From: Amoebidium appalachense
Taxonomy: Eukaryota; Protista; Ichthyosporea
Assembly (NCBI GenBank): GCA_963693365.1
Contig: CAVNZM010000002.1
Span: 7,594,454-7,658,453 of the forward strand
Length of the DNA: 64,000 bases
Reading direction: 5' to 3'
Shown: piece by piece, positions 6,001-64,000 of the stretch
Position numbering within the stretch: the first letter of the stretch is position 1
Layout: each line of letters starts with the position of its first letter
Made by a program: the position numbers and the translations under genes
Notes under the pieces: model-generated
Seen by the model: only the letters and a program-made list of their open reading frames with translations
Database searches by the model: none
What the model was told of the DNA's origin: nothing

Positions 6001-8558
6001 GTGTGCACAAGCATGTGTGTGTGTGCATGCGTGTGTGCAAGCATGTGTGTGTGTATGTGTACAGACGTGTGTGTGTGCAAGCATGTGCGTGTGCAAGCGT
6101 GTGTGTGTACAAGCATGTGTGTGAAAGCATGTGAGCAGGTCATCAAGTGAGCATGTGTGTGCAGTGTGCAAGCACGTAGGTGCGCGCACCCATGTGAAGC
6201 CCCACTGCCAACTGGGGGGTTGGGTCGTGACAGGGGAGGAGAGGGGGGGGGAGGGGAAAGGGAGGGAATGCTGAATAAACTATGGTATGACCACGCCTTC
6301 CCGTAAAAAACCTTACTGTTCAAGTGCACGTGGGTGAACACCAAATGAGTAAAGCACTAATGATGGCGGCGACCATGAGGAGCGTAGGGCAACCGTAAAC
6401 CGTGTCCTCGTGTGCATATGTGTCTGTGCCTGGGGATGTGTGTGTATGTGTTTCACCAGGTATGCGGGTGCATTTCCGTGCCTGCCATCGCATGTGTGCG
6501 TATAAGCGTGCACATGTGCACACGTGTAAATGCAAGTGCGTGTGAATGTGCGCGTGAGTATGAGTGTGAGTGCGAGTGTGTGGGTGTGGGTGTGCCCGTG
6601 TCCATGCCCGTGCGAGTGTGCGTGTGTGCACGCGCACGTGCATATCGAAACGTGATTTGTGTGCGCATCTGGTTGCGCGCACTTGTATGTATTTGCATGT
6701 GAACGTGTGTGTGTGTGTACCTGTGCCGGTGCCTGTGCAAGTGCGTGTACCTGTGCCGGTGCCTGTGTGTGCCTATGTGCCTGTGCTGAACGGGGGGGAG
6801 CCACCCACCGTTCCCACTGGGCCCTTGATGGTTCCGCGCCAGCGCAGGAGACTGTCACCGATGGGAAAGGCAGAAATGGACTGGTCTCCCCCAGTCTAAA
6901 CACCAATAGATTTAGTTAATTAAACTTTATTAAGAGATAATCAACTTCATAAATGGGGGCGACCGACTGCGAATCTCTTGGCGCGAAGATATAAAAAGCG
7001 AGCAACTCGCTTTCCTTTCTCATTAAACACCAAAAAAAAGGTGACAACTGAAACGAACAGGTGTTAAAAATGCTTGTGGGCATTTTGTGCATCAATGTTG
7101 CCGACCTCAGCTACACACACTACATTTGATGTGCTTTTACTACAGTAGTAGACCGAACCGAGCCGCCTTTTCTTTACCTGCACCAACTTCCAACAATGCC
7201 GAGTTTGTGTGTGCTTATTGCCAACAGACCCTACAACTCATTATCGTTGTTCGAACCATATACCGTCCATTATTTGAGTAAGACAGGCTGCTCTATGAGC
7301 ATTAGTGCCCAATGGGACGGGAAGAAAGGAAAAAAAGGGCCGTGGGGTGGAAAAAGGGGCATTGGAAGGGGAGAGGAGGAAGGGGGGGGGAGGGGGGACG
7401 CTAAGAGTACAAGCTCTTATGACGCAAATACGACGAGACGTGGAAAAGAATACCTTAAGGAGAGGAGGTAGGGATGGGGTAGGCCGAGGGGATGGGGGAG
7501 GGCGGGGAGAGGGGGAGCGGACACGGGGCGGGGGGGGGGGGGGGGGGGGGGGGGGGGGGGGGGGGGGGGAGGGTTACCATCAGGGCCATCAGTTCTTGCT
7601 GCAACCTGTGAGATGAAAGTCAACTGTCAAAACAATCAAAACACATCTTTCTCTAAGCAACCACCAAAACAGAAAGATGCACTTTTGCAGTCTGGGTAGC
7701 TGCCAAAAGCTCACACAAGTTAGAGTGTTTGTGTCCTTCTCAACCATCCCCCCTCCCCCCCCTCCCCCCCCTCCCCCTTCCTTCCACACACACACCCACA
7801 CACCCTACACACACACACACAAAACAACGGAAAACAAAAAGGTAACTTCTCAACAATGTAAAAGCTTTTGCAAAATGTTGTTCAATGTGGTTCGGTGACT
7901 CGTTGAGTCCATGGCAAGGAAAAAAAAATCCCAAAAAACTGCTGTAACTGTTACACTTACTCCAACTAGCCCGGCATATAGGACGTGATGCATGTACTCA
8001 TATACAGCATACAACAGAAGGATCAGGGTTACGATAACGAGGAGACAATTACGGCGGCAAACGGCCAAAAGACAACAGTTCAGTCAACAAAAACATGGCG
8101 AGAAACAAACACAAACACTAAAGAGGAAAAGCCGGCACACTTCTGCTGACGGAAGGGGATCATTCCGGGCAAGGGTAGCCCACACCCTTATGAGGTACCG
8201 TCCTGCAATCAATAAACACGCTTGTAGTTTTTTTTTTTTTAACACCACAAGTATGCAAAGTGAGCAGAGTTTACAACGAGGGGGATGGCTGCTGTTCTCC
8301 TTGATTCCCCACTTTCCGAAGTGCTCATGGTGCTAAAGTGCTCATGGTGCTAACCGGCCAATTAAGCTAAAAGCGTGGAAAAAGCATGTGCCAAGCCACC
8401 ACGTCAAACTACAACAAAAACCGTGTGTAATCATGAGCTTGAACCGACCGCTGAACCTACCTCCTTGTCACAGAGAGACCCTCGCTTGTAGTTGCGCTCT
8501 GACCCACGGCCGCCTTTGCTGCACTGCGTCCTGTGGACGCTGCTCTGTTCTGTGACAT
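3077..8558 (-). CDS. UBE2C: Ubiquitin-conjugating enzyme E2 C (UbcH10, APC/C E2), 179 aa, 7 exons
   Basis: Exons 8558-8461, 7605-7578, 6895-6809, 5017-4874, 4584-4521, 3831-3772, 3135-3077; all GT-AG, phases compatible, total 540 nt. MSQNR...[10 protein letters not shown]...ISAFP...FHPNV...[37 protein letters not shown] is UBE2C-diagnostic. Confidence 0.96.
5297..5535. repeat. ~18-bp minisatellite (TGTGCAAGGACGTGTGTA-like) in UBE2C intron 3
   Basis: GTGCAAG anchors recur at ~18-bp spacing in a (TG)n matrix; degenerate copies continue to ~6170. Confidence 0.85.
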
Positions 8559-8839
8559 GTTTTCGATTGTGGATTGATGTGCGTCTACGTATTAACGCAA
8601 CTCTAAATTGCGGTCCTAAGCAATTCACAAATGGAATGCCAAGTGGCAACAGCAGGAGGTGTTACTAGAGTGCTTATTTATTCCGTGTTACGTGTGCTTT
8701 CTAACTGTTCCTTATCCTTAATCCAGAAAGCCAAAAAGTTGTGGTGTAGTGAGTTGCGCCTGATGAAAACCCTCAAATAAGCTATATACTTCTGCTTAAT
8801 TTCGGATGCCAAAAAAAAAAAAAAAAGAAAAAGGTATAT

Positions 8840-62200: not shown

Positions 62201-64000
62201 TCTTGGTGCATACGGTCGTGAGTACATGCATTTTATACTGTGTTTTGCTGTTTTACATCCCCCCCCCCCCCCCCCCCCCCCCCCCCCCCCCCCCCCCCCG
62301 CCGCCGCCGCCAAATACACACACACAACCACATGCACACGCAGATGCTCCGACCCATCCGCCTACCTTATACCACCCACCCGCAATGCAGTGGCAAATTC
62401 TAACCACGACATGCTCACATGCCCCCAGTGTGTAGAGCTCTTGTGCTTACCACATCTCCTTCTCCCCTCCCCCCCCCCCCCCTCCTCCCCCCCCCCCCCA
62501 CACACACACCTCCCCCTTTCATTCACCCACCCTTCCCTCTTTCCCCAAAACCCACCTACACACCCTTCTTTATTCCTCCCATCCACTTTCCCTCCCTCCC
62601 TCCCTCCCTCCCTCCTTCCCCCCCTTTCCCCTCCGTCCCCACCCATCCTCTCCCTTCAATCTACCCACCCACTCACACATCCTCCCACAAACCTCCTTTC
62701 CCTCCCCCAATATATTCCCTTTTTCGTTTTTCTCCCTAACACCCAAATCACCCAACAGGGAGGTGTTGAGGTTCGTGTGGCCCGTATCTTCAACACGTTT
62801 GGTCCCCGCATGCACCCGAACGATGGGCGGGTGGTGAGCAACTTTATTATTCAGGCTCTGGAGGGCAAGCCGATTACCGTATATGGAAAGGGGGATCAGA
62901 CTAGATCCTTCCAGTACGTCGAGGTATGTCACCAGAACGACCCCCCTCCCCCCTCATCACCCCCCCCCCCCCCCCCCCCCCCCCCCCCACCACCACCACC
63001 ACCACCACCACCCTCCTCCCCACACACACACACACACACACACACACACACACACACACACACACACACACACACACACACACACACACACACACACTGC
63101 ATCACGTTGTCCATCTTAATGTGTACTTAAATATATGTAATGCATTCTAATTGAATTACACCCCTCCGCCTCTCTTCCACCCCCCCCCCCCCCCCCCCTC
63201 CTCCCCCGCGGCACATAATCCCCCATGCATTTTCGTTTGTGGGTAAATAGTTTTTGTTTTGTCTTTCGATATGTATGTGCACTTCCATATTTCCAACCCT
63301 CTGAATGCATATATCCCCCCCCCCCCCCCCCCCCCCCCCCCCCCCCCCCCTTCCCCCTCCCTGCCTCCCTCCCTCCCCCTCCCCTCCGGCGCCGTGTCTC
63401 CCTGCCTGACCTTATGTTTGGTTTCTGCTCTTGTACTTGTACTTAGATGCCTCCCGTCCACCGATATGCATCCCCTCCCCCCACCCCCTGTCTCCCCCTG
63501 TACCCGCACCACCACCCCTCCCAACACGTACACACACACACACGTGCGTCCACGCACTCTCTCTCTCTCTAAACTCGCTCCCTCAATCACACTCAATCAC
63601 ACTCTCACTTGTTTACTTCCTCGCTCGCACTTCCCCCATCACCAACGCAAACACCCAAGCACGTACACATATACACACGAAACGTGCACGCACACACACA
63701 CGTACACAACACGTACACTCGTACACACACACACACACACACACACACACACACACACACACACACACTACAAGTACACACACACGTACCTCCCCACACA
63801 CACACGTCCCCCCCCCCCCCCCACACACACACACACACACACGTACACACACGCACACACGTACACGTACAGGACCTCGTTGACGGTCTCATGGCGCTGA
63901 TGAACAGCAACTACAGCCAACCGGTAAACCTCGGGAATCCCGACGAGTACACAATCAAGGATTTTGCCGTCATGATTCAGCAGATGATTAATGCCGATGC
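56201..64000 (+). CDS. UXS1: UDP-glucuronate decarboxylase (UDP-xylose synthase), type II membrane form; 3' end outside window
   Basis: Exons 56201-56211, 57562-57644 ([18 protein letters not shown]), 58738-59053, 60050-60161, 61296-61407, 61928-62052, 62759-62923, 63873-end. [69 protein letters not shown]. The first two exons are less certain than the rest. Confidence 0.95.

Follow-up and report, generated by a model that had tools for sequence, protein, structure and literature searches.

Sense-strand poly-C runs beside 5' splice sites in a 64-kb window of Amoebidium appalachense: a candidate intronic splicing signal

Introduction

The closest described counterparts of a C tract lying just downstream of a 5' splice site (donor) come from yeast and chicken. 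In passages of PMC3082912, the KH domain of yeast Mer1 is described as binding the motif AYACCCUY at most 25 nucleotides (nt) from non-consensus donors; likewise, a passage of PMC2481429 cites work in which hnRNP K recognises a C-rich, splicing-enhancing element close to a 5' splice site of chicken beta-tropomyosin. Crosslinks of the TIA proteins peak 10–28 nt downstream of donors (PMC2964331), and RRM3 of TIA-1 prefers C-rich RNA, as stated in part of PMC5416816. The G-rich donor flanks of mammals are read by hnRNP F/H, and mutational supply together with selection near donors was proposed for them (PMC3606033); in fish introns, AC repeats at the 5' end and GT repeats at the 3' end pair with each other (PMC4691745). 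Here we analyse a stretch of 64,000 nt from the ichthyosporean Amoebidium appalachense (contig CAVNZM010000002.1, positions 7,594,454 to 7,658,453; hereafter the window), in which perfect runs of C follow many donors on the sense strand.

The recognition of weak splice sites is poorly mapped outside animals and yeast, and passages of PMC5560861 indicate that ichthyosporean intron gain was independent of that of animals. A homopolymer that is frequent, sharply placed and strand-specific would let one examine, in a natural and unusually clean setting, whether enhancers are recruited from repeats supplied by mutation. The donor-side poly-C pattern is apparently undescribed: it was not found as a general intron feature, in ichthyosporeans or otherwise, in the literature covered, with most subscription papers and supplements that might hold motif tables outside that scope, and the passages of PMC11244446, PMC5560861 and PMC1877881 describe no such tracts, those of PMC5560861 also mentioning no survey of hnRNP or KH proteins.

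Poly-C runs downstream of the donors

The whole window was read and six genes with open frames were modelled, using the gene names of a first-pass annotation; this one window is the scope of every count given here. The initial set comprised 40 coding introns with a median length of 758 nt, the same number that the annotation had counted (UBE2C 6, USP22 14, CDK 8, a cysteine-rich gene 3, SMP-30 2 and UXS1 7), and a 41st, in USP22, was added from a spliced contig. Nineteen of the 41 are independently confirmed by spliced contigs or by a database protein. A C10 tract was defined as a perfect sense-strand run of at least 10 C, and was counted if it started no more than 40 nt from the donor, a limit taken from the claim of the annotation and not chosen blind; the null expectation was obtained by rotation, each intron keeping its own tracts at shifted positions.

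In the 40-intron set, 14 donors are followed by a C10 tract where 3.0 are expected, and this excess is unchanged for run thresholds of 7 to 20 and windows of 30 to 60 nt. With the 41st intron the count is 15/41 versus 3.1, and the maximum reached in 10,000 rotations was 10 (p about 1e-4). The excess is found when CDK is left out (10/33 versus 2.3), among the confirmed introns (10/19 versus 1.85) and among the remaining ones (5/22, p 0.005), and is real and statistically firm within the window. As had been claimed, the runs are on the sense strand whichever way the gene points (8/22 plus-strand and 7/19 minus-strand donors); by the rotation test and the strand counts they are neither uniform along the introns nor strand-symmetric, the distribution that the annotation had named as contrary to its proposal. 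The tracts start at +6, 7, 8, 9, 13, 13, 14, 15, 16, 16, 21, 26, 29, 36 and 37, that is, 11 of the 15 begin by +21; beyond +37 there is one start at +68 and then no first C10 start before +157. They are also longer than the internal tracts (median 28 versus 19, p 0.012). Once the true donor at 19282 is taken out, a C10 start follows none of 89 unused donor-like sites, or of the 42 of these outside GT-rich context, and follows 76 of all 1990 internal GT dinucleotides (3.8%). Other repeats show no such peak: G10 follows 1/41 donors (1.2 expected), G7 2/41 (1.5), T7 1/41 (1.7) and (CA)6 or longer 2/41 (3.4). The annotation had noted that several other introns start with G- or GT-rich tracts; such starts do exist, but they do not exceed chance, since 5/40 introns reach 50% G versus 3.0 expected (p 0.18) and 6/40 reach 80% G+T versus 3.6 (p 0.15).

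All 15 positions that it had cited as C-run donors are GT donors ending in-frame exons. Fourteen of them carry a perfect run of 12–40 C beginning between +6 and +37; the SMP-30 donor at 54829 has only broken runs. These donors, with two further ones, are as follows (the slash marks the exon end).

7530..7577, minus strand: UBE2C intron 2 donor atg/GTAACC, C40 at +9 (open reading frame continuity, Pfam UQ_con)
6792..6808, minus strand: UBE2C intron 3 donor, C7 at +11, below the C10 threshold and absent from the earlier list
17921..17975, plus strand: USP22 donor atg/GTGCGT, C8 at +21 and C20 at +36
19282..19364, plus strand: USP22 donor of a missed exon, cag/GTGTGC, C24 at +26 (spliced contig)
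19781..19806, plus strand: USP22 donor cag/GTAGCA, C19 at +8 (junction GT..AG in X14)
24087..24129, plus strand: USP22 donor cag/GTCACA, C31 at +13
26028..26070, plus strand: USP22 donor acg/GTGTGC, C29 at +15
40106..40158, minus strand: CDK intron 4 donor taa/GTACAA, C40 at +14 (exons tiled by X13 record 9)
39312..39349, minus strand: CDK intron 5 donor gag/GTGCAA, C32 at +7
38787..38836, minus strand: CDK intron 6 donor gaa/GTGAGT (strong), C30 at +21 (exon 6 inferred from a 59-nt contig gap)
37821..37889, minus strand: CDK intron 7 donor caa/GTATGC, C25 and C28 from +16
37035..37067, minus strand: CDK intron 8 donor gcc/GTATGC, C28 from +6
46845..46896, minus strand: cysteine-rich gene intron 2 donor gag/GTGGTT, C12 and C14 from +13 (open reading frame continuity)
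54794..54829, minus strand: SMP-30 intron 1 donor gag/GTAGAT, broken C runs, longest C7 at +30 (Pfam SGL)
57645..57720, plus strand: UXS1 intron 2 donor cag/GTGTGT, C17 at +29 (model equals P0006)
62053..62081, plus strand: UXS1 intron 6 donor cag/GTATGC, C14 at +16 (model equals P0006)
62924..62988, plus strand: UXS1 intron 7 donor gag/GTATGT, C6 at +18 and C29 at +37 (model equals P0006)

C-run donors are not clustered in consecutive introns (p 1.0) and their introns do not differ in length (p 0.91); the exons upstream of them are slightly shorter (p 0.06). The CDK intron of the 5' untranslated region, which is confirmed and stands outside the counts, has no C7 run at its donor. Two USP22 exons lie between a G run on their 5' side and a C run on their 3' side (17703–17975 and 19661–19806), which could pair around the exon. 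Also in USP22, a 121-nt unit that includes an exon end with its donor has 3.6 repeats in the next intron (26842–27286), giving spare donors.

Strength of the donors

Many of these donors had been described as weak. Predicted pairing to the U1 5' end is 5.0 kcal/mol for C-tract donors versus 7.3 for the others (one-sided p 0.003), and the number of matches to the donor consensus is 5.5 versus 6.2 (p 0.02), which is the direction that this description predicts, with an outcome that varies with the measure. The pairing trend is kept under within-gene permutation (p 0.013), for tracts from +13 onward (p 0.009) and in comparison with non-GT-rich introns (p 0.004), and the trend to weaker donors has p 0.055 in the confirmed and p 0.039 in the unconfirmed subset. 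Across nine strength measures and two thresholds, 11 of 18 one-sided p values are below 0.05, these being uncorrected and not independent.

Gene models and a missed exon

One of the C-tract donors ends an exon that had previously been missed:

19228..19281, plus strand: in-frame USP22 exon of 54 nt, frame open (X14 record 16, X13 record 9)

The donor-like site at 19282 was noticed on reading the sequence, before the internal C tracts were scanned; in that scan, one of 48 internal tracts had an upstream site that outscored the bottom quartile of the true donors (against a background of 3.9%), and it was this one. X14 record 16 directly joins 19224–19278 to 19722–19778, and both RNA-like runs (X13 and X14) end loosely at the exon upstream of 19228–19281; because of this junction and these loose ends the 54-nt exon is real. 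The contigs of both runs are taken as RNA, behave as spliced and represent one sample, which makes this check a single case in a single sample. The C-run rule pointed to a missed exon, and could improve gene models in the ichthyosporean lineage.

Pfam backs the assignments to ubiquitin-conjugating enzyme, kinase, zf-UBP, SMP-30 (SGL) and epimerase. The UBE2C model comes from open reading frame continuity, with one exon matching UQ_con. The cysteine-rich, secreted-type gene had been labelled TIMP-like, a label that finds no support: its exons have no Pfam match above the cut-off, a homologue search with the largest one returned 0/58 candidates, and its model is based on open reading frame continuity alone. 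For CDK, a contig of 1361 nt (X13 record 9) directly tiles 7 of 9 exons, and a 59-nt gap in it is compatible with exon 6 together with trimmed ends and the end of one more exon. The X13 contig also reveals the intron in the 5' untranslated region (42361–42781, minus strand), which is spliced in X13 and retained in one X14 contig. The UXS1 model, which extends beyond the window edge, equals the database protein P0006 over 350/350 residues. The best clearly cellular named matches of a UXS1 exon among unicellular relatives have 88%, 84% and 78% identity and bear the labels CFRG, Ihof and Awhi, which we take to be Creolimax, Ichthyophonus and Abeoforma; two oak-labelled and several unnamed records also rank among its matches. 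The best match of USP22 is a Capsaspora protein (43% over 549 alignment columns). By themselves, these matches most likely place the organism among the ichthyosporeans. The contig comparison passes over repeats, and most run lengths in the window may be inexact; a DNA contig (X9 record 24) spans the donor at 19781 and 15 C with zero differences, although run X9 is possibly the source of the window.

Rfam gave no match in the whole window, and none of five candidate intergenic open reading frames had a Pfam match above the cut-off. A long single-exon open reading frame for a protein kinase (209–1279, plus strand; Pfam Pkinase, E 1e-54) contrasts with its intron-rich neighbours.

(CA)n repeats at the acceptors

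A second signal, which the first-pass annotation does not mention, is found at the opposite end of the introns. Repeats of (CA)6 or longer end within 40 nt of the acceptor in 12/41 introns versus 3.3 expected, and in four introns they run directly into the last two or three bases. The two repeats are sorted by intron end, with C tracts at donors and acceptors in a ratio of 15:3 and CA tracts in a ratio of 2:12 (Fisher p 2e-4). Acceptor flanks are U-poor (mean 30% T at -23 to -4, with at least 50% in 8/41); T7 runs are enriched there (6/41), and a CTRAY branch-like motif lies at -50 to -11 in 10/41 introns versus 5.5% of internal windows. Donor C and acceptor CA are linked neither within one intron (7/16 versus 5/24, p 0.17) nor across the exon (p 0.28). 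The clearest cases are:

25825..25917, plus strand: (CA)46 running into a USP22 acceptor, no pyrimidine tract
38887..38919, minus strand: CDK intron 5, (CA)16 reaching the acceptor
38004..38051, minus strand: CDK intron 6, (CA)23 reaching the acceptor, where ACG stands in place of AG
58719..58737, plus strand: UXS1 intron 2, (CA)9 reaching the acceptor, with C runs before the repeat
51444..51554, minus strand: SMP-30 intron 2, (CA)43 with its end 25 nt short of the acceptor

A start of CDK exon 7 at 38003 is consistent with the contig spacing, and the ACG end of intron 6 corresponds to 38004–38006 (minus strand); the assembly may lack one base here, or else the acceptor is a non-canonical one.

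Repeats elsewhere in the introns

The introns hold 81 (CA)n tracts, which are more abundant than the C tracts. Homopolymers are common outside the introns too, with 23 tracts in the 21.5 kb between genes. Some of the C runs belong to a dispersed repeat of about 105 nt, whose copies are 70–80% alike and usually end directly in a C run:

3980-4080 (minus), 20035-20134, 44903-44974 (minus), 53094-53194 (minus), 57818-57918 and 61106-61209: copies of the dispersed repeat
8242-8273, 25736-25792, 38168-38210, 39812-39885 and 63097-63149: weaker copies

A profile of this repeat has 11 matches with E below 0.05, six of them being the training copies; all lie in introns and in sense orientation, the regions between genes have none, and 8 of the 11 are followed by a C run. 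The repeat has no Rfam match and no consensus fold, and it explains about eight internal C tracts and none of the donor tracts. A segment of high contig depth with many loose ends in CDK intron 3 (40682–40715) is likely another dispersed repeat.

Further repeated segments were observed in the window. A block of about 1.2 kb is present in two imperfect copies at 9300–11600, with C, CT and GT tracts and 87% likeness over 118 unique nt. At 14192–14280, outside the modelled genes, there is a 44-nt tandem duplicate in which each copy has a minus-strand consensus donor. The region 28644–36514, with no identified gene, has 12 C versus 3 G tracts on the plus strand and a donor-like site near 32516, and this skew may reflect an unannotated plus-strand transcript.

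Possible explanations of the donor runs

The core result is an approximately fivefold peak at the donors, standing over a background of sense-biased C runs supplied by mutation. We lean, slightly beyond even chances, towards the view that the donor C run is an intronic splicing enhancer read by a protein, a proposal made on sequence grounds. A C-reading protein would bind the single-stranded C tract of the pre-mRNA and thereby stabilise the U1 small nuclear ribonucleoprotein on the adjoining donor; homopolymers born by slippage and abundant in the genome would be recruited where they help, and selection would keep them at donors. The putative reader would probably be a KH protein of the PCBP/hnRNP K/Mer1 kind; an RRM protein of the TIA-1/Nam8 type with shifted specificity is a less probable candidate, and a reader of another kind less probable still. 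A signal acting on the RNA and under selection predicts runs that are strand-specific, placed by the U1 footprint, end-specific, missing from decoy sites and biased to weak donors. The introns show the position, the strand, a sorting by end relative to (CA)n and, modestly, weaker U1 pairing at C-tract donors; the runs also lie where donor-side enhancers described elsewhere act. Such sorting, with C at donors and CA at acceptors, is not what a generic edge effect would give. Tentatively, this enhancer could be one half of a two-repeat splicing code, in which poly-C would take over the donor-defining part of U- or G-rich tracts, and (CA)n the acceptor-defining part of the U-rich pyrimidine tract, with a separate reader protein for each repeat, and slippage would tune thousands of constitutive introns; we regard this wider scheme as possible, though doubtful.

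Several observations weigh against an enhancer. As many as 48 of the 63 C10 tracts are located mid-intron, a fact absent from the first-pass annotation, and they are themselves sense-biased (48 C versus 24 G, p 0.006); because C runs are common and sense-biased there, mutation likely supplies the raw material. Introns with a C-run donor are richer in C10 throughout (1.98 versus 1.20 per kb) and poorer in GT6 (0.15 versus 0.76 per kb), and an intron-wide mutational state would give such introns, rich in C and CA and poor in G and GT. A broader measure, at least 50% C from +7 to +46, shows only a twofold excess (16/40 versus 7.5, p 0.0015), and 26/41 introns have no donor C10 tract. Several C-tract donors are strong, and the claimed weakness is not seen in a median split of donor strength (11/20 versus 6/21, p 0.12), in the C10 set when position +6 is omitted (p 0.12) or at the exonic positions alone (p 0.2–0.3); since the exonic part by itself shows no difference, the link between poly-C and weak donors is only suggestive. 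Moreover, runs of 20–40 C far exceed the length that a KH site needs, and the evidence consists of sequence statistics from one window and six genes.

Much of this background would be expected if the runs had no role in splicing and were the neutral or nearly neutral product of strand-biased, transcription-linked slippage and of the loss of sense G and GT runs, concentrated near donors by an edge process such as polymerase pausing, a nucleosome edge or fewer tolerated deletions. The sense bias throughout the introns (C:G 48:24, CA:GT 79:18), the modest excess in broad C content and the tendency of whole introns to be in a C or a G state (G10 in 3/16 C-donor introns versus 15/24 others, p 0.01, among 40 introns; 4/17 versus 14/24, p 0.054, among 41) all agree with it, and local richness in C and A could by itself erode +5G and +6T. 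Nevertheless, a neutral origin must account for the sorting of C to donors and CA to acceptors and for a peak that ends at +37, and donor strength is untied to the C+A content further in (Spearman -0.01); we consider it rather unlikely. Selection could also act without a reader, if poly-C were a passive spacer that, free of GT, AG and (with no G nearby) structure, leaves a weak donor accessible and without competing sites. A spacer would fit the strand and position of the runs, their considerable length, the trend to weak donors and the scarcity of G runs in these introns; yet (CA)n is equally free of GT and more abundant, and is unenriched at donors, which makes this explanation unlikely.

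The remaining explanations have far lower probability. That the tracts are the tails of mobile elements, inserted near donors and deprived of their bodies, is suggested by the dispersed repeat and its C-run ends and by the high summed depth of DNA contigs over one of its copies. However, none of the donor-proximal tracts is joined to an element body, the sole nearby match (E 4.2) being weaker than null matches; the spacers between donor and run, 5–36 nt, are mutually dissimilar; an all-against-all blastn of the introns gave four pairs, of which one involves a donor tract, the match covering the C run plus some 20 nt beyond; and GCAT, present upstream in 4/15 cases versus a background of 9.8%, overlaps the donor consensus. 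Several CDK introns also lie at positions that are presumably common to human CDK1/2, and on the whole an origin from element tails is very improbable. A bridge formed by pairing of the 5' C run with a G run near the acceptor, as with the AC and GT repeats of fish, could be drawn for the USP22 introns with donors 19282 and 24087, which have such a G run, but G10 occurs anywhere in only 4/17 C-donor introns. True pairs of 5' and 3' ends folded no better than mismatched ones (-30.3 versus -32.3 at 100 nt; p 0.6–0.8 at 100 and 150 nt), and the same holds for the C-donor introns (-21.2 versus -22.6). Folding and G-run counts thus refute bridging as a general rule in these introns, and we give it very little credence in any form. 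Finally, the sequencing platform might have invented or inflated the homopolymers, and the exact lengths of most runs may indeed be off, since the read comparison skips repeats; an artefact would not track gene strand and donor position, and the identical 15 C after donor 19781 in X9 record 24 also speak against one, an explanation to which we attach next to no weight.

Comparison with known systems

The repeats at the ends of these introns recall the (AC)m-(GT)n introns of fish in being simple, lineage-specific signals accompanied by weak pyrimidine tracts. They differ in that the 5' C and the 3' CA found here are unable to pair, and there is no bridging signal; GT6 was found in 3/12 CA-ended introns (p 0.72), that is, complementary end repeats of the fish type were not detected in them. 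As regards transposon-derived introns, no homologous body or termini common to the C-donor introns were found. The logic proposed for hnRNP F/H flanks, in which mutation supplies the tracts and selection follows, fits the window too, although the base is the opposite one and G10 is present at 1/41 donors. With the sites of TIA-1/TIAL1 the C tracts share their location, as they mostly cover 10–28 nt after the donor, but those sites are U-rich, and U runs are unenriched here (T7 1/41).

The nearest likeness, as far as the cited passages describe these systems, is to the Mer1/Nam8 enhancer of yeast, also a C-cored element within about 25 nt of a donor, and the KH domain of Mer1 is related to that of PCBP2. 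The donors of Mer1 are non-consensus, a property for which the C-tract donors here show a suggestive trend. The Mer1 motif is 8 nt long and serves a handful of meiotic introns, whereas pure runs of 12–40 C are found here in 15/41 introns of housekeeping-type genes and are known from their sequence alone. The hnRNP K enhancer of chicken beta-tropomyosin is likewise C-rich and near a 5' splice site; as cited in PMC2481429 it acts on a single regulated exon, unlike the apparently general feature described here. What both share, a sense-strand C-rich element shortly after the donor, is found at 15 of the 41 donors, and by this analogy it is plausible that the donor C runs of A. appalachense resemble, in their pattern, enhancers of the Mer1/hnRNP K kind.

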